Part shown: positions 1 through 15,251 of the stretch, piece after piece
Numbering within the stretch: position 1 is the stretch's first letter
How the letters are laid out: each line of letters begins with the position of its first letter
NCBI GenBank assembly: GCA_024975835.1
Contig: GCA_024975835.1_4840.2
DNA length: 20,653 nt
Reading direction: 5' to 3' (one strand)
Source: a phage
Notes under the pieces: generated by a model
What the model was told of the DNA's origin: nothing
Database searches by the model: none
What the model saw: only the letters and a program-made list of their open reading frames with translations
Position numbers and translations under genes: made by a program

Positions 1-56
1 ATTATTCAATAACTGGCGAACGATGGGTTCACCGGGTTGAAAGGTAAGATTATATC

Positions 57-296
57 ATGAAGAACAAAATGGTCGAAACTTCAGTAGAGATTGATCGCAA
101 TTGGGGATTGCTCCGCGCTAAAGGGTTCCGCCGTGTGTATGCGACCAAAGAAGTCTACGCACAGCGTCGTGACGTTATCATCAGCAAGAAGGGCAAAGAG
201 TGGGTTGCTGAAGAAGTTGATGTCGAGACAGGCATCGTGGGAAAGGTAAAGGCCAAGGCCGCGATCCTCTTCGCTCTTCTGAAGCACATCAGTTAA
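57..296 (+). CDS. hypothetical protein (79 aa)
   Basis: Complete ORF; ATG preceded by AAGGTAAGATTATATC, i.e. SD-like AGGT plus the recurring TATATC-ATG start context. No recognisable motifs. Confidence 0.5.
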   Translation: MKNKMVETSVEIDRNWGLLRAKGFRRVYATKEVYAQRRDVIISKKGKEWVAEEVDVETGIVGKVKAKAAILFALLKHIS

Positions 297-307
297 TTCT
301 ATAACTT

Positions 308-333
308 TGGGTGGGGTATGATTACCCCGCCCA
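308..333 (+). promoter_or_regulatory. strong intergenic hairpin (11-bp stem with one G.U, loop TGAT); possible terminator or RNA processing/stability element
   Basis: TGGGTGGGGTA-TGAT-TACCCCGCCCA read directly from sequence between the stop at 296 and the start at 356. Only a short T run follows, so it is not a textbook intrinsic terminator. Confidence 0.4.
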
Positions 334-355
334 TTTGAAACCAAGAGACTATATC

Positions 356-733
356 ATGAAAAAGTTAATCCTCGCTGTTGCCCTGCTGGGCGCTTCCTTT
401 GCTGCTGTTTCCGCCCCTTCTGTCATCACTGGGGTGTCTACCAACGGTGTTTATGCTTTCAAGGCGTATGGCCAAGACCTCGTTCTGTATAAGAACGGGA
501 AGATGATTGAGCGCTGCGTATCAGACGACGTGAATCGTGGGATCGACAATCAGGGTAGCCCATACGTCCTGGACATCTATTCCTGCTCCAACGGGACGAA
601 GTCCTTTGGCGTCAAGACCTTTGGCAACGTCGCCGACGGTGGCTGGGGCTTCATGTTCGAAACCCGCAACCACCACCCGGTCAAGACCATGCAAGAAGAG
701 TTCTTGATCTCTGTCGGGGGTGGAACATTATGA
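356..733 (+). CDS. secreted/periplasmic protein with cleavable signal peptide (about 125 aa)
   Basis: ATG at 356 inside the track ORF 311..733 (the track start at 311 is GTG). N-terminus MKKLILAVALLGASFAAVSA-PSV is a classic Sec signal (K-K, hydrophobic core, AxA-like site). Start sits in GACTATATC-ATG context. Confidence 0.6.
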   Translation: MKKLILAVALLGASFAAVSAPSVITGVSTNGVYAFKAYGQDLVLYKNGKMIERCVSDDVNRGIDNQGSPYVLDIYSCSNGTKSFGVKTFGNVADGGWGFMFETRNHHPVKTMQEEFLISVGGGTL

Positions 734-1017
734 CGCCTGAACAACGCCGTTCCGTGAAAGTCATGGTGAAAGGTAAGACTCAGCTGAGTTATGTCCAGTC
801 TGCCAATGTTGTCCGCCTGATGGAAGTCAAGAACGACATCGACAACTCCCGATTCCAATCGGCGCTCTACGGGCTTCTCGAGTTCGTTCTTCGCCAGGCT
901 GATCTTGGTCCTGTCTATACTCTTGATGATCTGACCAAGCTGTTGAACACGGGCGGGGAAGGTTTCGACACTGCTCGTATCCTGATTGACGGTGGACCTG
1001 AAGAAGACGAGGTATAA
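730..1017 (+). CDS. hypothetical protein (95 aa)
   Basis: ORF whose ATG overlaps the upstream stop (ATGA at 730-733), suggesting translational coupling. No recognisable motifs. Confidence 0.5.
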   Translation: MTPEQRRSVKVMVKGKTQLSYVQSANVVRLMEVKNDIDNSRFQSALYGLLEFVLRQADLGPVYTLDDLTKLLNTGGEGFDTARILIDGGPEEDEV

Positions 1018-1177
1018 TTTGGATAAAGAATTGGTTTGGGAAATTGTGAAGGGTGTCTTAGTAATAATCGCGGTGGTTTTCATCTTGGGTGGGAACTTCT
1101 TCTATTGGTTATTCCGATCCGACCAGAAACGTCGCAAACGCAAGGAGAAAGAGAGAAAGGATCGATGGATGCGCTAA
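986..1177 (+). CDS. small membrane protein, one predicted TM helix and basic C-terminal tail; start uncertain
   Basis: Hydrophobic segment VLVIIAVVFILGGNFFYWLF followed by KRRKRKEKERK. The ATG at 986 overlaps the upstream gene by 32 nt; alternative in-frame starts TTG 1019 (GAGGT 5 nt upstream) or GTG 1043 are equally plausible. Confidence 0.35.
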   Translation: MTVDLKKTRYNLDKELVWEIVKGVLVIIAVVFILGGNFFYWLFRSDQKRRKRKEKERKDRWMR

Positions 1178-1209
1178 CTAAGGGATAACCCTATATCCCG
1201 AGGTGTGTC

Positions 1210-1659
1210 ATGTTCCTTACATCCTTTATTGACTGGTTGAACATCATTAACGGCCTGAGGATCCCTGTTGGGAACCTCGGGCTTTCTCGTTCTTCTATGC
1301 CGCAAATCGATGCCGACAAACAAGAAGATTTTCACAAATATCTTGAAGACAACGGTGTGTCCATAGATGCTGTGCAAGTGCCCATCAAAATGCTTCGTCT
1401 CACCCAGAACGAAATCAACAAGATGAAGGTCTGGAAGATCATGAAGAACATCAGAAATAAGAAACCTATGGGTCGAGTTTGGGTGTCTTCTGACAATTAC
1501 GTTGTTGACGGTTCTCACCGATTTGTCGCTGCGTTGAACATGGACGGCAAACAGCGCATGAAGGTCTACAAAGTTGATTTGCCAGCGATGGAATTTATTA
1601 AACTCGCTAAACAGTTTCAGGGTGTGCGATACAGAACGGTCAGCGACACCCGTTTCTGA
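1210..1659 (+). CDS. ParB/sulfiredoxin-like (ParB N-terminal nuclease-type) domain protein
   Basis: Motif VVDGSHRFVAA resembles the ParB/Srx-fold signature (DG-HR-xAA). GAGG lies 8 nt upstream of the ATG. Assignment is by motif only. Confidence 0.5.
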   Translation: MFLTSFIDWLNIINGLRIPVGNLGLSRSSMPQIDADKQEDFHKYLEDNGVSIDAVQVPIKMLRLTQNEINKMKVWKIMKNIRNKKPMGRVWVSSDNYVVDGSHRFVAALNMDGKQRMKVYKVDLPAMEFIKLAKQFQGVRYRTVSDTRF

Positions 1660-1738
1660 ATACGATAGTTTATTGAATCCCTTTACTCATTATGGTGAGC
1701 CGCCTATCATTTCATCCAATGAAATAAGGAGAATCGCC

Positions 1739-2425
1739 ATGAAACGTTTAATCCTCGGGGTTGTGCTGGCTGGTCTGGCATTACCCGCCGCTGCCAAGCT
1801 GAACTCCACAGGTGATAAACTGTGGTCCGACCTTTCCTATTGTGCTGGGTTCTCCCAGGCGGTTGCCATCGACAAGTCTGGTTCCATAGAGAACTTCGCT
1901 GAACTCTGGAACACAGGTAACGTCTCCACTGCTGTCGTCAATGCCGGAATTGAGTTCAACCGTTACAAACAGGGAGCCTATAACCTCAAGGGCTACCTCA
2001 ATGACGACGAATTTAACCGTGGAGGCATGGAGGCTGGCGATTTGATCATGACTGGGCGTATGGGCACCCAAGGCCGAATGACCGTAAGACAGTGCCGTTC
2101 GCTCCCTTCTCCAGCATTACAGAAGGGTGTGCAGGTTGGTCGCCGCCACCTGAACCTTATCAACGATGGCAACCAGTGCATCAAAGTATTCGAATACAGC
2201 GCTACGCAGACCTCTGATCGCGTCCTGAAGAAGGAATGGCGCACCCGCGCTCTTGGTCTCAGAGCCTGGCTGGTTGAGAACGATTATTACTTTGAAGACA
2301 GGGTTCAGAACGGTCTGAAAGACCTGGCCACGAATCTGAGCGTGAACCTTGATGATCCCCGCATGTCGCGCGAACTCCAGCAGACTCGTGTTGACTGCGA
2401 CAATATGATGAAGGAGAACGAGTGA
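1739..2425 (+). CDS. secreted protein with signal peptide (about 228 aa)
   Basis: ATG at 1739 inside track ORF 1574..2425, preceded by strong SD AAGGAG at 7 nt. N-terminus MKRLILGVVLAGLALPAAA-KL is signal-peptide-like. Confidence 0.65.
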   Translation: MKRLILGVVLAGLALPAAAKLNSTGDKLWSDLSYCAGFSQAVAIDKSGSIENFAELWNTGNVSTAVVNAGIEFNRYKQGAYNLKGYLNDDEFNRGGMEAGDLIMTGRMGTQGRMTVRQCRSLPSPALQKGVQVGRRHLNLINDGNQCIKVFEYSATQTSDRVLKKEWRTRALGLRAWLVENDYYFEDRVQNGLKDLATNLSVNLDDPRMSRELQQTRVDCDNMMKENE

Positions 2426-2751
2426 TGAAATGTAAAATCCTGCTCTTGTTGGTACTGATAGCCGGGTGTGTAAACGCCGCGCCACCGTCCAAACTGAACA
2501 CATGTGTGGCGTGGATGGAGACGTATCAGCAGTTCCACCCAGATGACAAAGATACATCTATCCTCCTGTCCGACTTCGAGGGAGAGCTGAAGCGCCTTGA
2601 TCTGTTCAGTGTTGATCAGATAGAGAATGCGCTGGATCTTCCCATGATGCTGACTGCGGCTGACAACAGTCCACAAACGAAGAAAGACCTGATGTATTGC
2701 CGGGGGATTGCCCAGGACTTTGTCGGATTTCAAAATAAAGTTTCGGGTTAA
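2425..2751 (+). CDS. putative lipoprotein (about 108 aa)
   Basis: MKCKILLLLVLIAGC carries a lipobox-like LIAG-C. AAGGAG lies 8 nt upstream of ATG 2425; the start overlaps the upstream stop (TGATG). Confidence 0.6.
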   Translation: MKCKILLLLVLIAGCVNAAPPSKLNTCVAWMETYQQFHPDDKDTSILLSDFEGELKRLDLFSVDQIENALDLPMMLTAADNSPQTKKDLMYCRGIAQDFVGFQNKVSG

Positions 2752-2772
2752 AATTTAGCCCTACATTGTGAA

Positions 2773-3657
2773 ATGAAGGAATACACTGTGATGCTCCTGA
2801 CCAAAACAATCGCTGCAGCGATTATCGAAAAGAATAAGGCTTTTGCCCCCAACGCAGCCAAAGTTATGTTGGTACACGAAGACGCTCGCGTGATCTTCGC
2901 CGAGAAGTTCGAGATGGGCGCGAAGTTCTGGTATGCCGACAACTTGCGTGAGAGCAAACTTCAGGGTATCATCCACAAACTGACTCTGGTCGCCAAGCGT
3001 AATGACCAGGGTGACTGGGTCGGCGTTTCTGACTTCAGTACGAAGATCACCCCAAAGGCTCCGCTTTCTCGTCAAGAGCGCATTCTGGAAGCCCAGGAAA
3101 AGCTGCGTGCGGCTCGGAGTACCCCAAAGGCGAAACCAGATGCAAGCCCTGTTATCAAGCCAGCGGTTGTTCCTAAGTCCAAATACCTCCCTCCCGTGAG
3201 TCAAAAGGCTGTGGAGCAATTGGTTGAGAAGCGCAAGGGTGACGTTGTGATGAAGTCTGACTCTTCAGTGGAGCCGTTCAAGCCGGATCCAGCAGAAGTA
3301 CAGGCGCTGGCAGAAAAGGTAAAGAATTCACAATTCATTTCCCTGCGTGAACTTGAACCGCCTACTCGCCGTCGTGTCGCCAACGAGCTGTTTGTGTCGT
3401 TCAGGTCGGATGGCAAGATCGTCCTGTGCAAAGCCCTGCGCGATGCAATCCCTTGGACAACTCTGAACATGATGGTCACTCGCGACTTCAAGCGTTTCGG
3501 TATCATGCAAGGCAAGGACTACAACGTCAACCAGAGCGGGACTTATGTTAATCGCGCCATGTGTGACAAACTGACCTTCCCAGAAGATACTGGAACGATC
3601 CGTGTCGTTCTGAACTGGGACGACAAGCTGAATATGTATGTTGGTGATTTCCAATAA
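2773..3657 (+). CDS. hypothetical protein (about 290 aa)
   Basis: Long ORF with a Lys/Pro-rich middle region. Start ambiguous between ATG 2773, GTG 2788 and ATG 2791; AAGGA at 2775-2779 favours one of the latter two. Confidence 0.55.
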   Translation: MKEYTVMLLTKTIAAAIIEKNKAFAPNAAKVMLVHEDARVIFAEKFEMGAKFWYADNLRESKLQGIIHKLTLVAKRNDQGDWVGVSDFSTKITPKAPLSRQERILEAQEKLRAARSTPKAKPDASPVIKPAVVPKSKYLPPVSQKAVEQLVEKRKGDVVMKSDSSVEPFKPDPAEVQALAEKVKNSQFISLRELEPPTRRRVANELFVSFRSDGKIVLCKALRDAIPWTTLNMMVTRDFKRFGIMQGKDYNVNQSGTYVNRAMCDKLTFPEDTGTIRVVLNWDDKLNMYVGDFQ

Positions 3658-3668
3658 TCAATAACCTC

Positions 3669-3700
3669 GGGTGGCTTATCATAAAGCTGCCCTTTCATTT
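3669..3700 (+). terminator. hairpin plus T-rich tail, candidate intrinsic terminator
   Basis: GGGTGGC-(10-nt loop)-GCTGCCC, a 7-bp stem with two G.U pairs, followed by TTTCATTT. Lies just after the stop at 3657. Confidence 0.35.
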
Positions 3701-3713
3701 GAGTGACTATATC

Positions 3714-4376
3714 ATGGAAAAACTTTATTCTATTATCGTCGGTCCTGATCCTGACGGATTATTCTTCGCCCCGTTGTCTTATATTGCCCACGCCCGTATC
3801 GGTAGCTATTACGCATATTGCACACGTGGCCACGACGGTTCCAATATCCTCCATTATAGCCGCCTGAACGATTTCCTGGAACTTCAACCAGAAGATGTTG
3901 TGCTGGCGCGTCGCGTGTTCATCGACTTCAACGCGATGCACAACAACGAAATCGACGCTCGCTATCATGCCATGCGTTCTATGGAAGGGGGAGACTGCAT
4001 TTATCGTATAGACCATTTTAGTGAGTTTACCGAATGTATTGATTGGTTTATCTCTGATAAAGTGATGGGTGAAAGAATCGTCACAACTCCGTGGGCACAT
4101 GCGGAACAACTTCGTGTGTCTACCGATGCGTACAAAGAAGTCGACAATCTGTGCAACAAGTTCCGCATCTCGGTGACCTGTAATCAAGACCTGGGCGAAG
4201 AGATACAATGGACAGCTGAGTCTCCTCATTTCAGTGACCTGGTGATGACGGCCGAAACCCGTTCCCGTGCTGTTATCCAGTTAGTACTCTGGGCGTTCTA
4301 CCAGCGCACCCCGTTCTCGTACATGGGACAGAAAGAGATTGATGAACTCCTGAAGTCTCACGCGGTGGAGGTGTAA
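3714..4376 (+). CDS. hypothetical protein (about 220 aa)
   Basis: ATG at 3714 inside track ORF 3699..4376, in GACTATATC-ATG context. No recognisable catalytic motifs. Confidence 0.6.
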   Translation: MEKLYSIIVGPDPDGLFFAPLSYIAHARIGSYYAYCTRGHDGSNILHYSRLNDFLELQPEDVVLARRVFIDFNAMHNNEIDARYHAMRSMEGGDCIYRIDHFSEFTECIDWFISDKVMGERIVTTPWAHAEQLRVSTDAYKEVDNLCNKFRISVTCNQDLGEEIQWTAESPHFSDLVMTAETRSRAVIQLVLWAFYQRTPFSYMGQKEIDELLKSHAVEV

Positions 4377-4377
4377 T

Positions 4378-4656
4378 ATGGCTGGTGTATGGTGTGATGT
4401 CTTGCTGGTTCGTTACAGCGTAAATGGGTGTGTCCAAGTGCGTTCCGCCTTCTATCCAGTACCGTTCTCTTCCGGTGGCCTGACGGTTCAGCGAGTTCTC
4501 AATATTGAGGCAGAACTGAACAAAAAGTCTTTTGGTGTACAAGTCCTGGGGTACGATCTTCTGAATGAAATGATGGTTGAAGAAGACAAAGTTGAGACTG
4601 TCATTGGTCGTCAGGAGATGGAATCGTTAATCTCCAAATCGGAGGTCAAATCATGA
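4378..4656 (+). CDS. hypothetical protein (92 aa)
   Basis: ORF starting 2 nt after the upstream stop (TAATATG). No motifs recognised. Confidence 0.5.
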   Translation: MAGVWCDVLLVRYSVNGCVQVRSAFYPVPFSSGGLTVQRVLNIEAELNKKSFGVQVLGYDLLNEMMVEEDKVETVIGRQEMESLISKSEVKS

Positions 4657-4901
4657 GTCCCAACATGGCAATAATCTGGGTTGGTGAATCGTCAATGCGT
4701 TGTCCTCACAAGACGATCACCTTCTTGGACGATGAGCGCCTGGCCGAACAACGGGTTGAAGTCCGCGAAATGCAGGTTTCTTCAAAGGCGGTGAACGTTC
4801 CTGTGACTAATATTCAGACTTTTAAGCCTTGCGTCAGAGTGATTTGTGAACGCTGTGGATGTTATGGCACGATGACGACTGAAGACGTGGCGAAAGGCTA
4901 A
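4653..4901 (+). CDS. hypothetical protein with Cys-rich C-terminus (82 aa)
   Basis: ATGA overlap with the upstream gene. C-terminal CxxxxICERCGC cluster could bind a metal. Function unknown. Confidence 0.5.
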   Translation: MSPNMAIIWVGESSMRCPHKTITFLDDERLAEQRVEVREMQVSSKAVNVPVTNIQTFKPCVRVICERCGCYGTMTTEDVAKG

Positions 4902-4994
4902 TAATTTCGCTTTATTCAATATGTTTTGTTAGGTAAGATGTAGTCCTCTTGTAGTGAACATGAAAGTAAACATTAACCCAACGGAGAAATCCAG

Positions 4995-5273
4995 ATGAAT
5001 CGTACTGAATTTGTTGCCCACATTGCTTCGACCCAGAACATCACCAAAGGCGAAGCGGAGAAAGTAGTGGCATCCTTTATCGACGGTGTAAAAACTGCAG
5101 TTGCTGCAGGCGCATCTGTACAGCTGGTCGGCTTCGGTGCGTTCGAAGTGAAACACCAAGAAGCGCGTGAAGGTCGCAACCCTCTGAACGGCCAGACCAT
5201 TCAGATCGCGGCGAAAAACGTTGTGAAATTCAAAGTGGGCGAAGGTCTGAAGAACGCTGCCAACGGCAAGTAA
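4995..5273 (+). CDS. HU/IHF-family histone-like DNA-binding protein
   Basis: Protein is 92 aa, typical HU length. Contains the HU-family arm signature VQLVGFGAFEVKHQEAREGRNPLNGQTIQIAAKNVVKFKVG (compare bacterial HU GFGxF...R.GRNP...I.A...F..G). GGAG lies about 9 nt upstream. Confidence 0.85.
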   Translation: MNRTEFVAHIASTQNITKGEAEKVVASFIDGVKTAVAAGASVQLVGFGAFEVKHQEAREGRNPLNGQTIQIAAKNVVKFKVGEGLKNAANGK

Positions 5274-5322
5274 TTCTATCTGACGCGCGGCCAGGCTCTG
5301 CAATCAGGGCATGGCAAAAGAG

Positions 5323-5355
5323 AAAGCCGGAGTACAATGCTCCGGCTTTTTCGTT
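5323..5355 (+). terminator. rho-independent terminator
   Basis: AAAGCCGGAG-(7-nt loop)-CTCCGGCTTT followed by TTTTTCGTTCTT, directly downstream of the HU-like gene. Confidence 0.7.
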
Positions 5356-5401
5356 CTTGGGGATCGGGTAAACTATAGGCGAATCCCATAGGAGGAAGAA
5401 A

Positions 5402-7120
5402 GTGACAGCATTCAACCAATATACTAAGGCGCTTGACGGCGTCGGACCAGTCAGCATAGACCGCATCAAGTCTCTTGCCACTGAGTTCTTCCCGTATGAC
5501 ACCGCCAACCCCGGCCAGATGGAATGCATCGTTGAAGCCATCGATGCCCTTGTGAATAAGAAATTCAAACACGTGATCATCGAGGCTCCGACTGGTGTAG
5601 GTAAATCCCTCATCGGCACTACCATCCATAACGTGCTTCGCCATTTGGTTCTTGAGCACAACCCGTATGGTCAGTTCCGCACGTCTATCACGACGCCGAC
5701 CAAAGGTTTACAGGATCAGTATGCAGCAGAGAAAGCCGTGGCGATAGACATCCTGAAGGGCAAGAAGAATTACCGTTGCCACATCAGTCCCGACCTATAC
5801 TACAACGCCATTCAGTGCCGTATGGCATGCCGTGATGGCCAGTGTAGTAAGAATCGTTGCCCATATGTTCAGGCGCGTCGACAGTGGACCGACGTCTCCT
5901 CCCTGCGCTGCACCAACGCCGCCATGATGGTGGAGATGTGCACGACGATCTGTATGAAGCCGGAAAACCGTGCCGATATGCTGATCCTTGACGAGTGTCA
6001 TAAAATGCCCTCTACGCTCCTAGAGCATACTATCATGGAATACAACATAAAGGCTGTGGAAGGGCTGCTTACGATCCCAGAGGGGGTGCCTATCGTGGAG
6101 ACCATCAAGGATATCATCATCCGCACAGAGAACTATGAATTGGGCAACCTGTATTCCCTGTCTGGTGAGATGCATGCGATATTTGATGAACTGCACGGCA
6201 AGGTTGAAGCCCTGTTGGAAACTCTTGAGGAACTGGTAGAGGACGAGCGCCTGACTGAAGCCCAGGTGATGAAGCTGTCTGATATTATTGATACTCTTCA
6301 CAACCTCAGCGACTACTGTGGTATCATGGGGCAGACCAACGCCAGCACTTTCATCGTACAGGAGAAGGACAAGGGTATGATTCAGTTCAAGCCTGTCATC
6401 GCCTCTGATGTATCCCAGTTCGGCCTGTTCCGCAAGGGTGACTACCACGTCCACATGTCGGCTACCATTTGTGGGATTGACTCGTACGCCCGGTCACTGG
6501 GTATCCGCGAGGGTGAGTACCACAAGATACAGATCGGCAACCCTATCCCGATTGAGAACCGGAAAGTCAACTACATGCCCATCATGAAGATGACAGCGAA
6601 CATGGGTGACTATGAGATGAAGAAGCTGGCCGAATACGTTGATGAAATCATCGCATTCCACCCTGGGCAGTCTGGTATCATTCACACAGTAAGTTATGAC
6701 CGCGCCCTGGCTATACAGAAGTTCAGTAAGTACCGGAATATGATTCACGTTCCTCGTACTCGTAAGGCTCTGATGGACATCATGGAACACGCGTTCAGGA
6801 CGAAGACGCCTTGTGTCATCGCCAGTCCGGCCATGGAAGAGGGGTATGACTTCAAAGGCGATTACAGTCGATTTCAGATCTTGATCAAGGTGCCATACGA
6901 TTACCTTGGTGATCCTCTGGTGGCCCACGTCAACAGTGTGGACCCATCGGCGTACTTCAGGATGGCGGTACTGCGTATCGTTCAGATGTGTGGGCGTTCG
7001 GTCAGGGGCGTGAATGACTGGGCTGCGACGTACATCCTTGATTCTTCTTTTGAATCACTGATGATGCGCAACCCAGAGTTCTTCCCCGCTTGGTTCACTG
7101 ATGCCGTGTTTGAGGTTTAG
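5402..7120 (+). CDS. SF2 DExH-box helicase with Cys-rich insert between motifs I and II (DinG/XPD-like architecture)
   Basis: GTG start with AGGAGG 6 nt upstream. Walker A EAPTGVGKS, motif II LILDECH, motif III SAT (HMSATICG), motif VI QMCGRSVRG. Five Cys within about 30 residues (RCH...QCRMACRDGQCSKNRCP) lie between motifs I and II, where XPD/DinG helicases carry their Fe-S domain. Confidence 0.8.
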   Translation: MTAFNQYTKALDGVGPVSIDRIKSLATEFFPYDTANPGQMECIVEAIDALVNKKFKHVIIEAPTGVGKSLIGTTIHNVLRHLVLEHNPYGQFRTSITTPTKGLQDQYAAEKAVAIDILKGKKNYRCHISPDLYYNAIQCRMACRDGQCSKNRCPYVQARRQWTDVSSLRCTNAAMMVEMCTTICMKPENRADMLILDECHKMPSTLLEHTIMEYNIKAVEGLLTIPEGVPIVETIKDIIIRTENYELGNLYSLSGEMHAIFDELHGKVEALLETLEELVEDERLTEAQVMKLSDIIDTLHNLSDYCGIMGQTNASTFIVQEKDKGMIQFKPVIASDVSQFGLFRKGDYHVHMSATICGIDSYARSLGIREGEYHKIQIGNPIPIENRKVNYMPIMKMTANMGDYEMKKLAEYVDEIIAFHPGQSGIIHTVSYDRALAIQKFSKYRNMIHVPRTRKALMDIMEHAFRTKTPCVIASPAMEEGYDFKGDYSRFQILIKVPYDYLGDPLVAHVNSVDPSAYFRMAVLRIVQMCGRSVRGVNDWAATYILDSSFESLMMRNPEFFPAWFTDAVFEV

Positions 7121-7884
7121 TAACCCGCAACGAAGGACAGATGGCACTTGACATTCGGTTCCAACGACGTCACAGAAACCGTCATATTGTCCGTATCTTG
7201 GCTGAAGTCAATGGTGGCGAGAGGTTTGGTCTGAATATGGTTGTAAACACTGTAGATCAGATCCTCGCCACGATACCCTACCTTCCCGTCGGTGTCTTGC
7301 CAATGACCCAGTGTCTCATCGTAGACATGTACTCTGAACTCGATCATATGGAAGAGTGCCTTGGGGATGTCCTTGAGCACGCTGGTGCCAACCACGGGAA
7401 TCTCTATGCTGGAATCATTGGAGTTCCCTTCATAGACCGAAGCCCATGCAAAGGTAGGATCACCCCCAGCAACAGGGGTTCGCTTCCAGTATTGGAATTC
7501 TGGGTTGCCTGAAGCGTTCTTCTGAAGTAGAATGACCTCACCACCTTTGAAGTTCGAAGTATCGATGTCGCCTCGCTGAAGTTCATCTGCTGGAGATCCA
7601 ATAAATTTCCAGCCTTCGCGATCCAATAAAGACTTATAATAGTCGGTGAACACGTTGCTGTCTTCTGCATCGTTGATGGCATCTTTGAGACCTTGGCCTG
7701 TCACCATCTCGTTGAGCTTCAACCACATGTTCTTGACAGCAGACGCTGCTGCGACTTGTCCAGCAGTCCCACCTGCAGCATAATCATAGATGATATCTTC
7801 TGACTTGATAGCATCATAGATAGAGAGGAGCAATTGCTCAATCTGCGGGGCGGTGAGACTGAAACGATATGCGCGGGGTGCCAT
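7117..7884 (-). CDS. hypothetical late protein (about 255 aa), only convincing minus-strand gene in the window
   Basis: Start assigned to ATG 7884 (MAPRAYRF...) within track ORF 7117..8043, because GAGGAA lies about 8 nt upstream and a TATAAATA box lies about 36 nt upstream on the minus strand. 3' end converges on, and overlaps, the helicase stop. No catalytic motif recognised. Confidence 0.6.
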   Translation of the reverse strand: MAPRAYRFSLTAPQIEQLLLSIYDAIKSEDIIYDYAAGGTAGQVAAASAVKNMWLKLNEMVTGQGLKDAINDAEDSNVFTDYYKSLLDREGWKFIGSPADELQRGDIDTSNFKGGEVILLQKNASGNPEFQYWKRTPVAGGDPTFAWASVYEGNSNDSSIEIPVVGTSVLKDIPKALFHMIEFRVHVYDETLGHWQDTDGKVGYRGEDLIYSVYNHIQTKPLATIDFSQDTDNMTVSVTSLEPNVKCHLSFVAGY

Positions 7885-7919
7885 AGTTTCATTCCTCTTT
7901 CTATAAAACCAGTTTGGGA

Positions 7920-7927
7920 TATTTATA
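7920..7927 (-). promoter_or_regulatory. T4-type late promoter box TATAAATA on the minus strand
   Basis: Plus-strand TATTTATA at 7920-7927 is the reverse complement of TATAAATA, positioned upstream of the minus-strand ATG at 7884. A gp55-like late sigma factor is encoded in this same window. Confidence 0.5.
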
Positions 7928-7929
7928 TC

Positions 7930-8457
7930 ATGATAGAAATTTATTCTGACGGGGGTTCTAACCCGAAGACCAACCAGGCCGCAGGTTGGGCATTTGTCAT
8001 CAGGCCAATAACGGGTATGCAATGGAAGGTGTTCTTCGGCCATCTACCTCCCCCGTCCACTAACAATATCGCCGAGTTGTTGGGCGTGACCAACGCATTG
8101 AAGCTGCTGTGGGCATTCTCAGGAAAGGGTGAGCGCAGAATACCAAAGGCAACAATTTGGTCTGACAGCCAATATGCCATCAAGAGTGTCACCGAATGGC
8201 GAACGAAGTGGGAGTATCAGGGTTTCCCAGACAAGAACGTTGAACTCATCAAAGATCTGTTCAGAATCTATGATCTCGTTTGTTCAATTTGTGATGTTGA
8301 ACTAAAATGGGTTAAGGGTCATGCGGGGCACGAAGGCAACGAACTTGCCGATGACTGGGCCACAGCAGCCAAAAACGACAGCAACTTCCTGATTGAGAAT
8401 GACAAGATCTCAGTGAAGAAGGTTGTTGGATCTTTTGATGAATTTATCGGTATCTGA
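7930..8457 (+). CDS. rnhA: ribonuclease H, type 1 (RnhA-like)
   Basis: Start ATG 7930 (MIEIYSDGG...) within track ORF 7834..8457. Catalytic signatures IYSDGG, NNIAEL, SDSQY and WVKGHAGHEGNELADDWA correspond to the D-E-D-H-D active-site pattern of E. coli RNase HI. Confidence 0.85.
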   Translation: MIEIYSDGGSNPKTNQAAGWAFVIRPITGMQWKVFFGHLPPPSTNNIAELLGVTNALKLLWAFSGKGERRIPKATIWSDSQYAIKSVTEWRTKWEYQGFPDKNVELIKDLFRIYDLVCSICDVELKWVKGHAGHEGNELADDWATAAKNDSNFLIENDKISVKKVVGSFDEFIGI

Positions 8458-8468
8458 GGGCTTTCATA

Positions 8469-9260
8469 ATGGGAATGAACTTCGTGGACAGAGGGGAGAA
8501 TGTCGTCAAATATTTCACGGACGAAGACAACGAGCGTGTCATCAGTATCCTTCGTGATTGGATCCCTGCTCGTAAGAAGGCTCTGGCTGAAGGCACCAGG
8601 CTTCCAAAGATCCCCAACTATGTTGCTCTACAGGTCCAGCGCATCATCACCAAGATGAGTACCCGCTACAACTATCGCGACTATCCCTTCCGTGAAGACA
8701 TGGTCTCTGAAGCAATAGTCAACATCCTGCGCTACCTCCACACCTTTGACGTCGAACACATTGGAAAGAAAGGGAAGATCAACTTCTTCTCTTGGGTGAC
8801 CATGTGTGCTGATCGCTCATTTGCTCGTAAACTGAACATCGAAGAAGAGCACACGTACATTAAATTGCGCTCATTTGAAGAGGCGGGTGGGTTCGCAGGC
8901 CTGGCAGACGATCCCGACTTCCAACAAGAGATCTTTGTTGATGCTACAGGAATTGGCATGGACTTCCGTGAGCGTATCGGTAACTTTGAGAACAAAAAGG
9001 ACGCTCAAAGACAGAAGGAGCGAGAGAAGGTGGAGGCAGCTCGTCTCGCAGAATCGAATAAAAAGATTGCGAAAGGCATACTTCAATACATGGCGCAGGC
9101 TAAGAATACGGTAACAGCGCAGGCCGAAGACAATTCAGATCAGGACTTTGGCAAAACCCAATTCAATCTGGAAGATGATATCTGTGCGATGGAACCAGAT
9201 TGGGAAGCCCTCAAACAAAGATTAGAAGAACGGGAGAAAAAGAATAATGGCGATTGCTAA
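8469..9260 (+). CDS. gp55-like late-transcription sigma factor with extended charged C-terminal tail
   Basis: Pattern RYNYRDY...VNILRYLHTFD...NFFSWVTMCADRSFARKL parallels T4 gp55 as I recall it (RFNFSGY...LHNFD...YITQACFNAFVQRI). Protein is about 80 aa longer than T4 gp55, with a Lys/Glu-rich C-terminal region. Confidence 0.75.
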   Translation: MGMNFVDRGENVVKYFTDEDNERVISILRDWIPARKKALAEGTRLPKIPNYVALQVQRIITKMSTRYNYRDYPFREDMVSEAIVNILRYLHTFDVEHIGKKGKINFFSWVTMCADRSFARKLNIEEEHTYIKLRSFEEAGGFAGLADDPDFQQEIFVDATGIGMDFRERIGNFENKKDAQRQKEREKVEAARLAESNKKIAKGILQYMAQAKNTVTAQAEDNSDQDFGKTQFNLEDDICAMEPDWEALKQRLEEREKKNNGDC

Positions 9261-10362
9261 AATCGGCGATCTGCATATCGGGAGCCGTAATGGTTCCCGA
9301 TACGTTCGCGACTTCATCAAGAACTATCTCATCAATTATTTCATCCCTGAACTTGTCGACTCTGATATCAAAGAGGTCTGGCAGTTCGGTGATACGTTTG
9401 ATGTCCGCAAATTCATGTACGGGCGTGACAAGGACTGGTTGAAAGATGAGCTGACTCCGGCGCTGAAAGCTGCTGGGATCAAGTGGAATGGTATTGTTGG
9501 TAACCACGACATCACCCTGGAAGAGTCTAACCGCATCAACTGGCCATCCTACCTGAACGAACTCGACCCAGATGTGTACTGCTATTATAGCGAACCGACC
9601 GAAGTGATGATCGAGGGTGTCAAGACTCTGCTCCTACCGTGGATCAACAAGGAGAACTATGATGCGTCTATTAAGGCGATACAAGATACAGACGCCGAGT
9701 ACTGTTTTGCGCATCTGGAGCTGGCAGGGTTCAAAATGTACCAGTCCTCTACTTGTGATCACGGTCAGATCGACGTTGCGTTGCTTTCCAAGTTTACCAG
9801 GGTCGACACGGGACATTTCCATACCCGTTCGATGGAAGGTAACATTCAGTATCTTGGGACTCCGTATCACCTGAACTGGGAAGACTACAAAGATGGCACC
9901 AACCGTGGCTTCTATGTGGACGACATGCGCGGTGGTGAGGTCTTTATCCCGAACGCCGAGAATCAGACGTTGTTCCGCTATGTGGAATATGATTACACCA
10001 AGTTGTCCTCAGACGATGAGGGTAACTGGATCAACCCGGAATGGCTGAACACAGGCTTGGGTATTGAAGGGCAAATCGTTAAGGTTATTGTACAGAATCG
10101 CGACAATGCTAAGCATTATGAAAAGTTCTGTGATGCCATGAAGCGCTGTAAGTGCATTGACTACAACTTCATCGACCGGACTATTACCGTAGCGGCTGAG
10201 AAGGTTGAGGTCACCGAAGAGATGGTGGCAACCGACGCAGTGGAAGTCCTAAAGAAGGATATCCGCGCCGGGAACAACATCCAGCGCCCTGAAAACGTCT
10301 GCAAGCTGGCAGAGCACTTCTACAACGCTGCCCAACAACGTCTGAATACACTGGATGCATAA
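9247..10362 (+). CDS. gp47-like Mre11/SbcD-family recombination nuclease (calcineurin-like phosphoesterase)
   Basis: Phosphoesterase motifs GDLHIG, GDTFD, GNHD and GHFH, with N-terminal similarity to T4 gp47. Overlaps the gp55-like gene by 14 nt. Confidence 0.85.
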   Translation: MAIAKIGDLHIGSRNGSRYVRDFIKNYLINYFIPELVDSDIKEVWQFGDTFDVRKFMYGRDKDWLKDELTPALKAAGIKWNGIVGNHDITLEESNRINWPSYLNELDPDVYCYYSEPTEVMIEGVKTLLLPWINKENYDASIKAIQDTDAEYCFAHLELAGFKMYQSSTCDHGQIDVALLSKFTRVDTGHFHTRSMEGNIQYLGTPYHLNWEDYKDGTNRGFYVDDMRGGEVFIPNAENQTLFRYVEYDYTKLSSDDEGNWINPEWLNTGLGIEGQIVKVIVQNRDNAKHYEKFCDAMKRCKCIDYNFIDRTITVAAEKVEVTEEMVATDAVEVLKKDIRAGNNIQRPENVCKLAEHFYNAAQQRLNTLDA

Positions 10363-12700
10363 CATGACTCAAAGTACAGATATCCTGGCCAAATTTGGCA
10401 ATCTTTTGAAGGAAGCTGACACCCCGGTAGAGGTGGAAGTCCCATTTGAAGTGCGTGATAACGTTACGCACAAACTAACTTTCCGCAAAGGTCGTGCCAA
10501 AAACTTCCGTTCCATCGGCAATCAGTTCATGGAGATTGATTATCAGCGCAACCCAGCCACCCTTGTCACGTCTGATGACAACGGCGCGGGTAAATCCACG
10601 ATGTTGGTATGGCTGCTGTTCTTCGTACTGTACAACACCACGTACAGTAAGAAGGAGAAGAAGGCAGGCCTGGTTAACTCACAAAGCCGCAAGGAATGTG
10701 TGGGTGAGGTAGAGTTTGCCTGTCGTGGTAGTGAATGGAAAGTTCGCCGGGGTATCAAGCCCGACTTTGTTGAAGTCTACCAGATGGTGGACGGTAAGTG
10801 GTTGAAGATCGATAACGAAGCAGCCAAAGCCGACATGAACAAGTACATCGTGAATCTCATCGGTGTAGACCAGAAGATGTTTGAGAACTCTCTGGTGCTG
10901 GGCAAAGAGAAGTTCATTCCGTTCACGGAGATGTACACAGCCGACCGCCGCGCCATGGTGGAGACTATCTGGGACTTGGGCTTCTTCAGCCTGATGAACG
11001 AAGATGTCAAGGCATCCATCAAGAAAGCGAACGAAAAGCTGGACGCGATCGCGAATGAATGTGCGTTGAAGGTTGTTGACCACACCAACAAGAAGACGCA
11101 GCTACAGCAGATAGAGCGGTCCAATGCCCTTATCCAACAGCAGTCGGCCGATATCCTTGTGCAGCAACAGGAAGCCCTGACTTCCCTAGACGCTGACATC
11201 GCCGCCCAGAATGAAGAGCGCACCCGCCTCACTGCGGTTGAGTTCGAAGCCGCCCAGGAAATGAAGATAGTAGAAAGCCGCCTGCATGATGAATCCATGG
11301 TGGAGATCGATGCTGTCAAGAAAGACTTTGATGCCAAGATCCAGGCGGTGAAGGATGCCGCTCAGGAAAAGGCCGATGATTATGAGCGTATCGAAGTGTC
11401 TATTGCGGAGCATGATCTTCAGGTCTTGCGTGACCGCGCCTTTACAGTGGCCGAACGCAAGAACACCCTGCTCACCGAGCGCAACACAAACCTGGACGCC
11501 CTGAACGCTGCTATCCAGCGCCGTCAGCAGGGTGAGAACTTCCGTATCAAGTTCCAGACCGAAATGGATGGACATCAGTCGGCCATCAAGCGCTTCCACG
11601 ACATGGGGACTTGCCCAACATGTACCCAACTGGTGTCAGACGATACCAAGGCGCGTATTGAAAGCGAGTACAATCCTCAGATCCAGGAACTGCAGTCGAA
11701 GTTAGATCAACTGGACAAAGTTACCGCCGATATCAATGTCCTGATCGATGATCACAAGGCTCAGGACGATAAGTTGGTTGCTGACATTGCTGTGTTGGAT
11801 GCTGAACTGGATGCAATGCGCAAGCAGGCCGACGAAATCGTTGACAACATCAAGCAGCTGCGCCGTGATATTCAAGGTTTTCATGATGCCGCCACGATTG
11901 AGTGTAATTCGCTGAACCGTGAATGCCAACAGAAGATCCTTGACATCCGTAAGGCACTGAACGTTCGTTTTGAAGACATCACTGCGTCACTACAACAAAC
12001 TCGAGAGAATGCCGTCAGCGGGATTAAAGCCGTCGATGATAAGATCGCCGAGCTGAAAGCCCGTCGTGCTCCTCTCGTGGCGTCTATTGCCGATCTGGAG
12101 CGTAAACTGGCTGTACAGCCAACACCTACCACCGACCTGGAGAACTCTATCGCTGCGTTGGAAGGTGAACTGGAGTCTCTGTATGAACTCCGTGAAGATG
12201 CAGATGAGGAACTCCAGGACTTACAGCACCTGCTGTTCTTCTTGAAAGATGACCAGACCAAGGCGCGTATCATCGCCCTGTACTTGCCATTCCTCAATAG
12301 CAAGATCAACGAGTATCTTGAAGCCCTCAACATGTTCTTGGACATCGTTGTTGACGATACCTTTGAGATCACCATGAGCGCAGCAGGCCGCAAGGGACAG
12401 AGCATCTTCTCCCTGTCTACTGGCCAACGCAGTCGCCTGAACCTGGCTGTGACATTAGCTCTGCGCGATGTGGCTAACCTCAAGGCGTCTGTACAATGTA
12501 ACCTGTTCGTGCTGGACGAGATCCTTGAGAACATGAGCGAGCGCGGGGTGCAGGAATCGGTTGAGATGTTGAAGCATAAGTTCGGCGGGAACAACCTGTT
12601 TGTTATTAGCCAGCGCGAACAGGAGTTCCAGGAATACTTCCAACACAACATTCGCTACGGCCTGCGAAACGGCCTGACTGAAGTTATCAAGAAGGATTGA
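10355..12700 (+). CDS. gp46-like Rad50/SbcC-family ATPase
   Basis: Walker A DDNGAGKSTM, long coiled-coil middle, ABC signature LSTGQRSRLNLA, Walker B LFVLDE. Start is ATG 10355 or 10364 adjoining the gp47 stop; there is an N-terminal extension of about 35 aa relative to my recollection of T4 gp46. Confidence 0.85.
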   Translation: MHNMTQSTDILAKFGNLLKEADTPVEVEVPFEVRDNVTHKLTFRKGRAKNFRSIGNQFMEIDYQRNPATLVTSDDNGAGKSTMLVWLLFFVLYNTTYSKKEKKAGLVNSQSRKECVGEVEFACRGSEWKVRRGIKPDFVEVYQMVDGKWLKIDNEAAKADMNKYIVNLIGVDQKMFENSLVLGKEKFIPFTEMYTADRRAMVETIWDLGFFSLMNEDVKASIKKANEKLDAIANECALKVVDHTNKKTQLQQIERSNALIQQQSADILVQQQEALTSLDADIAAQNEERTRLTAVEFEAAQEMKIVESRLHDESMVEIDAVKKDFDAKIQAVKDAAQEKADDYERIEVSIAEHDLQVLRDRAFTVAERKNTLLTERNTNLDALNAAIQRRQQGENFRIKFQTEMDGHQSAIKRFHDMGTCPTCTQLVSDDTKARIESEYNPQIQELQSKLDQLDKVTADINVLIDDHKAQDDKLVADIAVLDAELDAMRKQADEIVDNIKQLRRDIQGFHDAATIECNSLNRECQQKILDIRKALNVRFEDITASLQQTRENAVSGIKAVDDKIAELKARRAPLVASIADLERKLAVQPTPTTDLENSIAALEGELESLYELREDADEELQDLQHLLFFLKDDQTKARIIALYLPFLNSKINEYLEALNMFLDIVVDDTFEITMSAAGRKGQSIFSLSTGQRSRLNLAVTLALRDVANLKASVQCNLFVLDEILENMSERGVQESVEMLKHKFGGNNLFVISQREQEFQEYFQHNIRYGLRNGLTEVIKKD

Positions 12701-12702
12701 TC

Positions 12703-12867
12703 ATGAACTACGAACAAATTAAACTCGCAATCCTGGTCTTTGCATGCATCATTGACATCATTGCATTTTCTCGTGAAGTCGAAAGGAAAAACTACCTGAA
12801 AGCACTGGGGTATCTCGGGTTCTCTGTCTGGTTCTGTTATCTACTTGCAGGTCAAATCCTGAAATGA
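12703..12867 (+). CDS. small membrane protein with two predicted TM segments (54 aa); absent from the ORF track because it is under 60 aa
   Basis: ATG 12703 lies 2 nt after the gp46 stop and the stop overlaps the next ATG (ATGA). Hydrophobic stretches IKLAILVFACIIDIIAF and LGYLGFSVWFCYLLAG read from my own translation. Confidence 0.4.
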   Translation: MNYEQIKLAILVFACIIDIIAFSREVERKNYLKALGYLGFSVWFCYLLAGQILK

Positions 12868-13193
12868 AAGTCGTCCACTTCAAGAAGGAGCCATATGACG
12901 TCTACATTGGTCGGCCTGGTAAATGGGGGAACCCGTTTGAGGTCAAAGACCATGGACGAGGCGTCTGTATCGAACTGTTTGAGGACGACCTGTATGTGCG
13001 CCTGATTGAAGGGGATATCACTGAGGATGAACTCCTTGATCTTGACGGGAAGGTATTGGGGTGCTGGTGTAAGCCGCGCCCCTGTCACGGAGATGTTTAC
13101 GTCAAAGTCATTGGTCGTATTAAACTATTCCGCAAGCTGGGTAAATCCTTTACTGAACACCTGAGACAAACATATGTCAGAATCAAAAGATGA
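12864..13193 (+). CDS. conserved protein with GNPF and CWCxPxxCHG motifs (I believe the DUF4326 family)
   Basis: Motifs WGNPF and CWCKPRPCHGDV in a roughly 110-aa protein. Family assignment is from memory of the motif pair and is not database-verified. Confidence 0.55.
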   Translation: MKVVHFKKEPYDVYIGRPGKWGNPFEVKDHGRGVCIELFEDDLYVRLIEGDITEDELLDLDGKVLGCWCKPRPCHGDVYVKVIGRIKLFRKLGKSFTEHLRQTYVRIKR

Positions 13194-13458
13194 TATCCAA
13201 GACTCCTGTGACATTGCGGTTGAAATCTGGAACCGTCGGAACCCGCATTACCAGGTGACCGTCACGCCAAATCGCTACCTTGAGCAGGGCGGTTTGATTG
13301 TTGTTGATGCTGTACTTGCGTTCAACAAGTACACCGACATGCAAATCCTGGACGGCAACTTCACTGTCGCGACCAAGACGGCTTGGGATGACCCGATGGA
13401 GTTTGTCTATGGCTGGCTGGAATGCATCGAGGAATCCTACCACCTCATCTATGAATGA
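13174..13458 (+). CDS. hypothetical protein (94 aa)
   Basis: ORF overlapping the upstream gene end by 20 nt. No motifs recognised. Confidence 0.5.
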   Translation: MSESKDDIQDSCDIAVEIWNRRNPHYQVTVTPNRYLEQGGLIVVDAVLAFNKYTDMQILDGNFTVATKTAWDDPMEFVYGWLECIEESYHLIYE

Positions 13459-13463
13459 GGCTG

Positions 13464-13497
13464 AAGGGCACTAAATATCACGTGCCCTTTATCTTTT
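13464..13497 (+). terminator. hairpin plus T-rich tail, candidate intrinsic terminator
   Basis: AAGGGCAC-(10-nt loop)-GTGCCCTT followed by TATCTTTT, a few nt after the stop at 13458. Confidence 0.55.
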
Positions 13498-13555
13498 AAC
13501 ACCTGTCAGGAGGCTCAAGCGAGCTGCAAGTCGACAAAACATAAGGAACGCCATC

Positions 13556-14170
13556 ATGACGATGACAACGTTGAAGGCCATGGCCTTGTCCGTGACCTTT
13601 ACCATTGCCAGCGGGAATGTGCACGCTTCCCAAAGTACCACCCAATGTGATTATAATTTCTCCGAGCAACAACTCAATACACTGGCAACCGCCTATCACG
13701 TAGGCAAGACACAAGATCTTGGCTACACTCTGGCCGCCATATCTTGGCGAGAGAGCCGCGCTGGTGAAGATGTAGTGTCAATGCGATACGGCCTCAAGGC
13801 GGCCAACATGGGAGCCTTTCAGAACAAGGTGAAGACAGTTGGTGATCGCGAAGGTTGTAAGAATCGCAAGTGCTATGCCAATGTCGCCATAAAGTTGCTG
13901 ACCGACCAAGAATATGCCGCGCAAGCCGCCCTCGATGAGATGCAGTTCTGGCTGACCTATCACAATCAGAATATCCGCAAATCCCTCTCCTCTTACAATG
14001 CTGGCTTCGCCCGTAATCCCGCATCGAACGCGTATGCTGCCGACGTCGTGAAGAAAGCTAAATATCTTCAGAAATGTGTGTCCTTCGAAGGCCGGACCAT
14101 CTCCGAGGTAGATCCTCAGGTGATCGCCATGAACAAGCACACAATAGAGAAACTGAAGAGGACAAGATAA
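13556..14170 (+). CDS. SLT-domain lytic transglycosylase-like protein with N-terminal signal or SAR-like segment
   Basis: Order of motifs SWRES...GAFQ...SYNAG mirrors family-1 lytic transglycosylases (ES...GLMQ...AYNAG). N-terminus LKAMALSVTFTIASGNVHA is hydrophobic and Ala/Ser/Thr/Gly-rich. AAGGAA lies 8 nt upstream. Confidence 0.6.
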   Translation: MTMTTLKAMALSVTFTIASGNVHASQSTTQCDYNFSEQQLNTLATAYHVGKTQDLGYTLAAISWRESRAGEDVVSMRYGLKAANMGAFQNKVKTVGDREGCKNRKCYANVAIKLLTDQEYAAQAALDEMQFWLTYHNQNIRKSLSSYNAGFARNPASNAYAADVVKKAKYLQKCVSFEGRTISEVDPQVIAMNKHTIEKLKRTR

Positions 14171-14808
14171 TGAACATCACTCCATCTCAGGCCGGATATG
14201 AACATATCTTGGTCTTCATTGCTCTACAGGGTGCGAAGGAAGGCATCATCGTATCCGAGTACTCAGGCACGGTTCGCCTTGCTGATTATGTCGCGCCAGA
14301 GGCGTTCATTAAGAAGTGTATTGACGCATGGTGCCTCTATGCCCTCAGCACATACCCTGCTCCTCCTGAGGGTGAGCTGTTGTTTACTGTGCCGACTCCG
14401 GCTGTTGGCGATACAGACGCGATCTTTGCCGATATGCTGACCAAGGGGTATCTGGTGTATGACCTCACCCACGATGTCTACTCCTTTACTTCGCTGAACA
14501 CCGTGTTTGGATTCACCATCACATCTGAAGCCAACATCCCTGACTGGGGTATCTTGGCTTGGGGTGTTGACGGTCTGGGTGCAACCTACGCATCGTCTGA
14601 CGTCGGTGCGGTTCTGATTGATGAGGGTGTCACCATGGAGCAGTACCTTGCCCAGTTCCCTCAGCACAATATCACAGGCAGCGACATCATTTTGGTCCAG
14701 CCTGGCGCTATCGCTCTCCCCCGTTTGGTGGATGGATGGAATCCTCGGCTGAAGGACATCATCGCAGGTATTCGGTCCCACATTCCGGTTGTGAATCCGA
14801 CGCCGTAA
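14170..14808 (+). CDS. hypothetical protein (about 212 aa)
   Basis: ATG 14170 within track ORF 14074..14808, overlapping the upstream stop by 1 nt (TAATG). No motifs recognised. Confidence 0.6.
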   Translation: MNITPSQAGYEHILVFIALQGAKEGIIVSEYSGTVRLADYVAPEAFIKKCIDAWCLYALSTYPAPPEGELLFTVPTPAVGDTDAIFADMLTKGYLVYDLTHDVYSFTSLNTVFGFTITSEANIPDWGILAWGVDGLGATYASSDVGAVLIDEGVTMEQYLAQFPQHNITGSDIILVQPGAIALPRLVDGWNPRLKDIIAGIRSHIPVVNPTP

Positions 14809-14822
14809 AAATAATTCAATAA

Positions 14823-14849
14823 AAGGGGCTTTTGCCCCTTTACTTCTTC
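14823..14849 (+). terminator. rho-independent terminator
   Basis: AAGGGGC-TTTT-GCCCCTT followed by TACTTCTTC, 15 nt after the stop at 14808. Confidence 0.6.
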
Positions 14850-14915
14850 AATATCCTTCCCTATACTTCATTCCATAAGCAGTACGACACCAACTTGAAA
14901 AGCAGGAACTATATC

Positions 14916-15251
14916 ATGACACAACTCAAGAACTTCACCGCCGATGACATGTTTGCCTTCCAGGGTGCTGAGCACTTTGCTGACGGCTCCGTACCTCGCA
15001 TCTACTACTTCTCCGACGAAGAAATGGAAGATTTCTTCGCCCTGATGGAAAAGGACTACGAATCGGGCGACTTCGTTTATATCATCCATCACGCTGAAGG
15101 ACTGACATTGGGTTGGACGGCCAACAATGAACCAGAAGAAGTAAACTTCCCTGAAGGTATCATGTCAGAGCGCGTCGAATATCTACTGGAAGCCCTGGAC
15201 CCCCACACCCTCCCGCTCTGGGCGATGTCTGTAGCCCAAGTTCAAAAATAA
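14916..15251 (+). CDS. hypothetical acidic protein (about 111 aa)
   Basis: ATG 14916 within track ORF 14832..15251, in AGGAACTATATC-ATG context. Asp/Glu-rich. Confidence 0.55.
   Translation: MTQLKNFTADDMFAFQGAEHFADGSVPRIYYFSDEEMEDFFALMEKDYESGDFVYIIHHAEGLTLGWTANNEPEEVNFPEGIMSERVEYLLEALDPHTLPLWAMSVAQVQK

Follow-up and report, generated by a model that had tools for sequence, protein, structure and literature searches.

The nine-base string TATATCATG, the hexamer TATATC fused to an ATG, marks five gene starts in a phage DNA stretch of 20,653 nucleotides (nt; contig GCA_024975835.1_4840.2, hereafter the window). It appears to be the core, consisting of the spacer between the Shine-Dalgarno sequence (SD) and the AUG together with the start codon itself, of a longer translation-start module, TTGAAW(W)-GCAGGAAC-TAYAYY-ATG. 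The explanation we favor, with a probability of about 0.6, is that this is a stand-alone ribosome-binding module that ends early promoter/leader cassettes resembling the promoter-early stem-loop (PeSL) elements of T4-like phages, and that it is reused in front of accessory genes and doubles as a recombination point. The motif lies on true gene starts, each preceded by intergenic DNA of its own, and within an unstructured leader that follows sigma70-like elements fused to G/C-rich hairpins; the same cassette recurs across genera with the gene behind it exchanged, and homology ends in or beside the module. The true unit spans ~24 nt (module) to ~110 nt (cassette) rather than 9 nt, a point missed by the first-pass annotation of this DNA.

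Results

Five exact copies of TATATCATG are present in the window, all on the plus strand (as are the octamers, boxes, and cassettes of the window given below) and none on the minus strand, at positions 51-59, 350-358, 3708-3716, 7924-7932, and 14910-14918. The first-pass annotation had judged five copies on start codons to be non-random, and we confirm both its coordinates and this judgement: dinucleotide-preserving shuffles of the window contain 0.09 copies on average and one at most. Copy 1 opens a gene at 57-296 (79 amino acids, phrog_804, function unknown), copy 2 a gene at 356-733 (125 amino acids, phrog_5474) with the signal-peptide-like N-terminus MKKLILAVALL, copy 3 a gene at 3714-4376 (220 amino acids, phrog_5426), copy 4 the RNase H gene at 7930-8457 (PF00075, E=3.8e-25), and copy 5 a gene at 14916-15251 (111 amino acids, phrog_9866).

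Megablast assigns the window to an Agtrevirus-like phage of the family Ackermannviridae, in the region of early and replication genes, with helicase, RNase H, the gp55 late sigma factor, gp47/gp46, and primase in this order. It is 95.7% identical to Escherichia phage YX22, ~92% to Ag3 and SKML-39, ~89% to Limestonevirus, and ~77-81% to Kuttervirus/Taipeivirus. Genome-wide tests were done on the complete genome of YX22, the nearest complete relative (154,890 bp, 186 annotated genes), with Kuttervirus S118 (NC_049437.1, 203 genes) as a second genome for counts; cross-genus alignments comprised Agtrevirus-like phages (including vB_CECAV_050), S118, and the Klebsiella phage Menlow (Taipeivirus). 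All five window ATGs within TATATCATG are genuine starts: the annotations of YX22 and vB_CECAV_050 place gene starts at the identical ATGs, and in all five products the match to PHROG and Pfam profiles begins at residue 1-3.

The genome-wide count gives the same picture. Eight of the nine YX22 copies of TATATCATG are at annotated starts, which make up only 3.2% of ATGs (P~1e-11), and TATATC is the top hexamer at -6 to -1 (8 of 186 genes vs 0.75 expected from independent columns, P~1e-6). Across YX22 as a whole TATATC is not enriched, with 58 copies on both strands, nine of which are followed by ATG, and the most frequent NNNNNNATG words of the genome are codon-driven and do not include TATATCATG. 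What sets TATATCATG apart is a positional lock to starts, not a genome-wide over-representation. TATATC and TACATC are again top hexamers at starts in S118, where five of seven TATATCATG copies are at starts if one gene with a probably mis-called TTG start is counted. This is the S118 gene at 142804-143397 (minus strand), for which the ATG at 143349 is favored because of the YX22 ortholog and a context of hairpin, TTTGAAC, SD, and TATATCATG. The sole non-start TATATCATG in YX22 (89073-89081, minus strand) is found 13 nt upstream of the ATG of the gp44 clamp loader, within the end of the preceding open reading frame (ORF; 89062-89718, absent from S118), and opens a six-codon mini-ORF (MEIHNV).

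Exact and near-exact copies of the 9-mer share the context TTGAAW(W)-GCAGGAAC/GAGAGAC-TAYAYY-ATG, that is, an upstream A/U box, an SD, an 8-nt G-free spacer, and the AUG. The SD-like purine run reported in the first pass is present at all five sites as a purine-rich octamer at -14 to -7 (GGTAAGAT at 43-50, CAAGAGAC at 342-349, TGAGTGAC at 3700-3707, GGGATATT at 7916-7923, and GCAGGAAC at 14902-14909 for copies 1 to 5), with the SD itself at -13 to -8; genome-wide, G/A peaks at -12 to -8 upstream of starts. TTGAAA, which the first pass had placed 8-9 nt before the hexamer at three sites, is indeed found there for copies 1, 2, and 5 (37-42, 335-340, and 14895-14900), at a position that is fixed relative to the SD and not to the promoter. 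TTGAA accompanies TAYATC in 6 of 12 YX22 genes, vs 4 of 174 genes (Fisher P=3e-6). The proposed flanking consensus (G/A)A(C/T)...ATG(A/G)A, by contrast, holds at three of the five sites and fails at 7924 (ATT...ATGAT) and 14910 (ATGAC).

Within the module, the hexamer at -6 to -1 has A or U at five of six bases and no G. Its counts in YX22 are graded (TATATC 8, TACATC 4, ATTATC 4), and in S118 the variants TATATT, TATACC, and TATAAC stand behind the same GCAGGAAC. The shorter string ATC-ATG is found in 30 of 186 YX22 genes, including capsid, portal, and tailspike, and in 27 of 203 S118 genes. More generally, both genomes favor A, T, and C at -3, -2, and -1, a preference that extends to late structural genes and does not depend on the TATATC class. 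Of the 12 TAYATC genes in YX22, 11 have 20 nt or more of intergenic DNA upstream, which argues that they are not translationally coupled. RNAalifold predicts no pairs and no conserved structure for seven paralogous leaders; local hairpins belong to the promoter/terminator part and not to the start region. The proposal of the first pass that the element acts at the level of the translation-initiation region stands.

Sigma70-like promoters fused to G/C hairpins stand 25-50 nt upstream of the module, which itself falls within unstructured 5' leaders. For copy 2, the PeSL-like element at 297-332 consists of TTCTAT (297-302) and, after 14 nt, TATGAT (317-322) in the loop of a G/C hairpin at 309-332. 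It folds at -23.6 kcal/mol (z=-4.4), and the hairpin with its TATGAT loop is invariant in six cassette copies. The element of copy 3 (3657-3692) is built likewise, with ATCAAT (3657-3662), 14 nt, and TATCAT (3677-3682) in the loop of a hairpin at 3669-3692. Both hairpin promoters (297-322 and 3657-3682) fit the published Ackermannviridae promoter motif TTCAAT[N14]TATAAT (PMC7283392) with one mismatch per hexamer. The motifs of that study are transcription signals, and in the papers that we read we found no description of a start-codon-linked module or of the fixed-leader class to which copy 5 belongs. The cassette of copy 5 (14815-14869) comprises TTCAATAAA, a G/C hairpin at 14821-14841 of the form GGGGC...GCCCC and, adjoining it, the sigma70-like pair TTTACT (14839-14844), 17 nt, TATACT (14862-14867), followed by a leader of ~48 nt to the ATG. 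This TTTACT-N17-TATACT class is followed by TAYAHY-ATG at 48-51 nt in seven of seven cases (YX22 3/3, S118 4/4), whereas the TTCAAT-N14-TATAAT class is followed by the module in 3 of 22 cases.

Promoters of the former class, GTTTACTTCTTCAATAAC...TATACTTC (14839-14869 in the window), number three to four per genome in YX22 and S118, always have an unstructured leader of 48-51 nt, and share G(C/T)AGTACGA(A)CA in mid-leader; they may be a separate temporal (middle?) class. At copy 1 (window 1-44), a TTCAAT box (5-10) and TTGAA (37-41) are reverse complements that would pair at the foot of a hairpin, predicted at -15.5 kcal/mol (z=-1.7) and not seen at the other copies.

The 30-mer CAACTTGAAAAGCAGGAACTATATCATGAC, which spans the module, is 100% identical in Kutterviruses, even though their alignable DNA across the window shows only ~79-81% identity. 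This 30-mer occurs in 338 phage records, essentially all from Ackermannviridae, at two to four places per genome, and a search beyond the family returned chance-level partial hits only. Cassettes of ~110 nt are kept across three genera before different genes, with homology breaking at the ATG. At locus 14916, cassette homology runs to ATGA; directly behind it, the window and YX22 carry the 111-amino-acid gene, and vB_CECAV_050, S118, and Menlow a 91-amino-acid gene. As vB_CECAV_050 has both genes, each behind GGAACTAYAYCATGA, the arrangement of the window is a deletion between two modules. Relative to vB_CECAV_050 (L001) 15629-16035, the window (14809-14918) and YX22 lack the 91-amino-acid gene (MKIILDAYI...), and the junction falls inside GGAACTAYAYCATGA.

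A similar exchange is seen upstream, where the hairpin cassette of copy 2 precedes the gene at 356, an Alt-like gene, or denV, depending on the phage. In vB_CECAV_050 this cassette is duplicated, on both sides of an extra Alt-like gene. The extra gene of vB_CECAV_050 (L001) at 781-1436, which encodes 168 amino acids and is annotated as "RNA polymerase ADP-ribosylase", is located between the orthologs of the genes at 57 and 356, is absent from the window, and has a copy of the GGCGGGGTATGATTACCCCG hairpin cassette on either side. In S118, a gene for 77 amino acids is inserted directly after a module.

Conservation of the hexamer itself is genuine but loose. At locus 3714, TATAT is invariant in four genomes from three genera. 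At locus 14916 the hexamer drifts between TATATC, TACACC, TATATT, and TACATT, with the SD and leader invariant. It drifts as well at the RNase H locus, where S118 has TTATAC and Menlow keeps TATATC with a GTG start (L011 10575-10586); at this locus the hexamer is thus conserved independently of the ATG.

Discussion

How would the module work? In the explanation that we favor, UUGAAW(W)-GCAGGAAC-UAYAYY-AUG stands at the 3' end of early promoter/leader cassettes that recur in Ackermannviridae phages. Host RNA polymerase would start 25-50 nt upstream of the ATG, and the module would serve as an efficient stand-alone ribosome-binding site for promoter-proximal, translationally uncoupled cistrons. 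It seems equipped for such a role by an AGGA/GAG SD, a near-optimal 8-nt spacer that lacks G and is rich in A and pyrimidines, and an A/U-rich box 5' of the SD. Repetition of the module would in addition provide ~15-25 nt of homology at which the phage recombination system could insert, delete, or swap accessory genes, a behavior demonstrated for PeSL cassettes in T4-like phages. Identity of the hexamer among non-homologous genes may then stem from shared cassette ancestry or homogenization, in either case together with purifying selection on the ribosome-binding site, and a dedicated 9-nt operator would not be required.

This arrangement has precedent in the PeSL cassettes of the T4-like phages RB49/phi1, PST, and nt-1, which consist of an AT-rich region, a sigma70-like promoter, and a polyG/polyC stem-loop between or over the promoter boxes, with the SD and start codon at the 3' side and with crossovers that fall between the -10 box and the ATG (PMC2839356, PMC4122927). 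A sigma70-like -35/-10 pair in an intergenic repeat is likewise present here at 14839-14867 and in seven cassette copies, and at copies 2 and 3 in the form of N14 pairs; sites 1 and 4 are less clear. G/C-rich stem-loops lie between or over the promoter boxes at 309-332, 3669-3692, and 14821-14841, with a -10-like hexamer in the loop at copies 2 and 3. As in PeSLs, the 3' end of the cassette holds the SD and start codon of the next gene, small genes of unknown function are associated with it, and copies flank gene insertions, deletions, and replacements among related phages with junctions inside the cassette. The family is a different one, however, and the likeness to the RB49 PeSLs is one of architecture and behavior. 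Moreover, in contrast to PeSLs, the most conserved part here is the translation-start end TTGAAWW-GCAGGAAC-TAYAYY-ATG, and one Ackermannviridae subclass has a fixed leader of 48-51 nt.

A spacer very similar to that of the translation-start end, GGAG-ATATACAT-ATG or GGAGATATACC-ATG, is found in the leader of T7 gene 10, a strong one that pET vectors employ. Both have an SD, an alternating A/T spacer ending in a pyrimidine before the AUG, and an A/U-rich, enhancer-like box 5' of the SD. The likeness between this leader and the Ackermannviridae module is one of sequence.

Several observations weigh against the cassette explanation. Sites 1 and 4 lack a clear combination of G/C hairpin and promoter, so not every copy lies in a PeSL-like cassette. 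The promoter activity of the cassettes, their 5' ends, and the strength of translation are predictions, and our literature search found no transcriptome or 5'-end data on Ackermannviridae. Predicted accessibility of motif starts (0.50) is only slightly above that of other genes (0.44-0.46; P=0.1-0.2, not significant); because the difference is small and non-significant, keeping the site open does not explain the choice of hexamer, and we rejected accessibility as its explanation. In addition, TATAT at locus 3714 is more conserved than the adjacent SD, and exact TATATC is ten-fold over the independent-column expectation, both of which would also fit sequence-specific recognition by a factor. 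Finally, the most highly expressed late genes use ATC-ATG and not TAYATC.

Could such a factor be RegA? The first-pass annotation had likened the motif to the RegA operators of T4, a comparison that proves apt but unproven. On a set of early and middle mRNAs, a RegA homolog would bind UAUAUC-AUG or the longer form GGAAC-UAYAYY-AUG, compete with the 30S subunit, and shut translation off later, which we consider unlikely on the evidence below. In T4, RegA acts on ~30 early and middle mRNAs, and the RegA sites of T4 and RB69 are A+U-rich, unstructured, and located over the AUG or between the SD and the AUG (PMC3014915). The motif matches this description: it is short, lies in the SD-AUG interval of a subset of mRNAs, is A+U-rich, and is predicted to be unstructured, with an accessibility slightly above average that does not reach significance. 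The sequences themselves differ, reading UAUAUC here vs AAAUU or UAA repeats in T4/RB69. An early or middle context would fit the sigma70-like promoters upstream and the restriction of strict TAYATC to non-structural genes, with structural genes accounting for 0 of 12 in YX22 and 0 of 8 in S118.

As in T4/RB69, a RegA homolog is encoded at the same genomic position: in YX22 it directly follows gp44/gp62 (87152-87616, outside the window; PF01818 E=2e-34, 1REG E=4e-26), and S118 gp125 is annotated as RegA-like. The YX22 protein keeps T18, R21, and W81, but K14, R91, and F106, which have been implicated in RNA binding, are not conserved. Calibration on the first 50 kb of T4 (86 genes) shows that the known targets rIIA and 44 share the 19-mer AATGAGGAAATTATGATTA around the ATG, and a RegA regulon can leave a genomic footprint of similar size, since AAATT-ATG marks 4 of these 86 early genes. 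Gene 44 is a classical T4 target, and the lone non-start copy of YX22 described above stands just before its ATG; however, the ORF that carries this copy is the one missing from S118. The start regions of regA, 44, 45, 62, rIIB, dexA, 32, and 43 lack the motif in both YX22 and S118, and orthologous hexamers shift freely by transitions at locus 14916, while the flanking SD and leader do not change. We therefore rejected orthology with the T4 RegA regulon, as the motif is absent from the 44, 45, 62, regA, rIIB, and dexA starts.

The simpler account is that the motif is what stays conserved where recombining promoter/leader cassettes end, at their 3' side. A RegA operator is nonetheless compatible with the cassette explanation, to which it adds a function for the module. 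We see only a small chance that the Ackermannviridae RegA homolog uses GGAAC-UAYAYY-AUG (core UAUAUCAUG) as its natural RNA operator, which would define a compact, sequence-specific regulon of early accessory genes. If true, it would offer a much crisper target for RegA-RNA recognition, which is not known to have been resolved in T4, where the operators are degenerate.

It is very improbable that the motif is an RNA-processing or stability signal at which an endoribonuclease, either RegB-like with S1 or host RNase E/G, inactivates or matures early mRNAs at the ribosome-binding site. Strong RegB sites of T4 are likewise long and begin in the SD (GG*AGRAYARAA; PMC3014915), and the motif is A/U-rich and predicted to be single-stranded, but its sequence misfits the RegB consensus in lacking both GGAG and an A-rich 3' tract, and no RegB homolog was seen. 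The ortholog of a neighboring gene is labeled "endoribonuclease" in one record, a label without support from Pfam, PHROGs, NCBIfam, or PDB. We rejected a RegB-like nuclease for this gene (13556-14170), as the label on the ortholog in Klebsiella phage XDRKpn-1 was not reproduced and Pfam gave only a sub-threshold SLT hit.

We give almost no credence to a transcription signal, whether with TATATC as -10 and TTGAAA as -35 or as a leaderless class starting at the ATG: the region is AT-rich and adjoins promoter-bearing intergenic regions, and the hexamers match TATAAT at four and TTGACA at five of six positions, but their spacing is 8-9 nt and not 16-18 (as the first pass had noted in setting aside a sigma70 pair), the hexamer ends in C where sigma70 needs T (TANNNT), a start 6-8 nt downstream of TATATC would fall inside the ORF, the motif is locked to strand and ATG, and better candidates for promoter elements stand at a fixed distance of 25-50 nt upstream. 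Spacing, final C, and predicted starts inside ORFs led us to reject the promoter. The leaderless class, which the first pass had allowed for, was rejected as well: each of the five sites keeps an SD, positions -12 to -7 hold no -10-like hexamer, and promoter-like -10 elements (14862-14867, 317-322, and 3677-3682) are found 25-50 nt upstream.

Overall, the cassette with its module is a fairly ordinary regulatory arrangement, with consequences for annotation, evolution, mechanism, and engineering. The module could serve as a reliable marker of true starts and of independently expressed early genes in the sequenced Ackermannviridae, which number ~300 and include many biocontrol phages, and at least one mis-called start has already been exposed by it. 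The shuffling of a regulatory cassette together with an accessory gene, familiar from T4-like phages, seems to operate in Ackermannviridae too, with the ribosome-binding site as crossover point. For mechanistic work, the module provides a concrete 24-nt candidate RNA for asking whether the conserved RegA homolog has a defined operator, and the cassette may be a ready-made insertion and expression unit for payload genes.

Two further observations concern promoters outside the five starts. The string TTCAATAAA/TTTATTGAA is the most frequent 9-mer of the S118 genome, with 24 copies, and is presumably the -35-side box of the early promoters of the family. At 18715-18738 of the window, just upstream of the gene at 18760-19113, a terminator-like hairpin, AATCCCCCTAAATACAGGGGGATT, carries a late-promoter-like family motif, CTAAATAC, in its loop, a layout with the promoter inside the hairpin that resembles the early cassettes.

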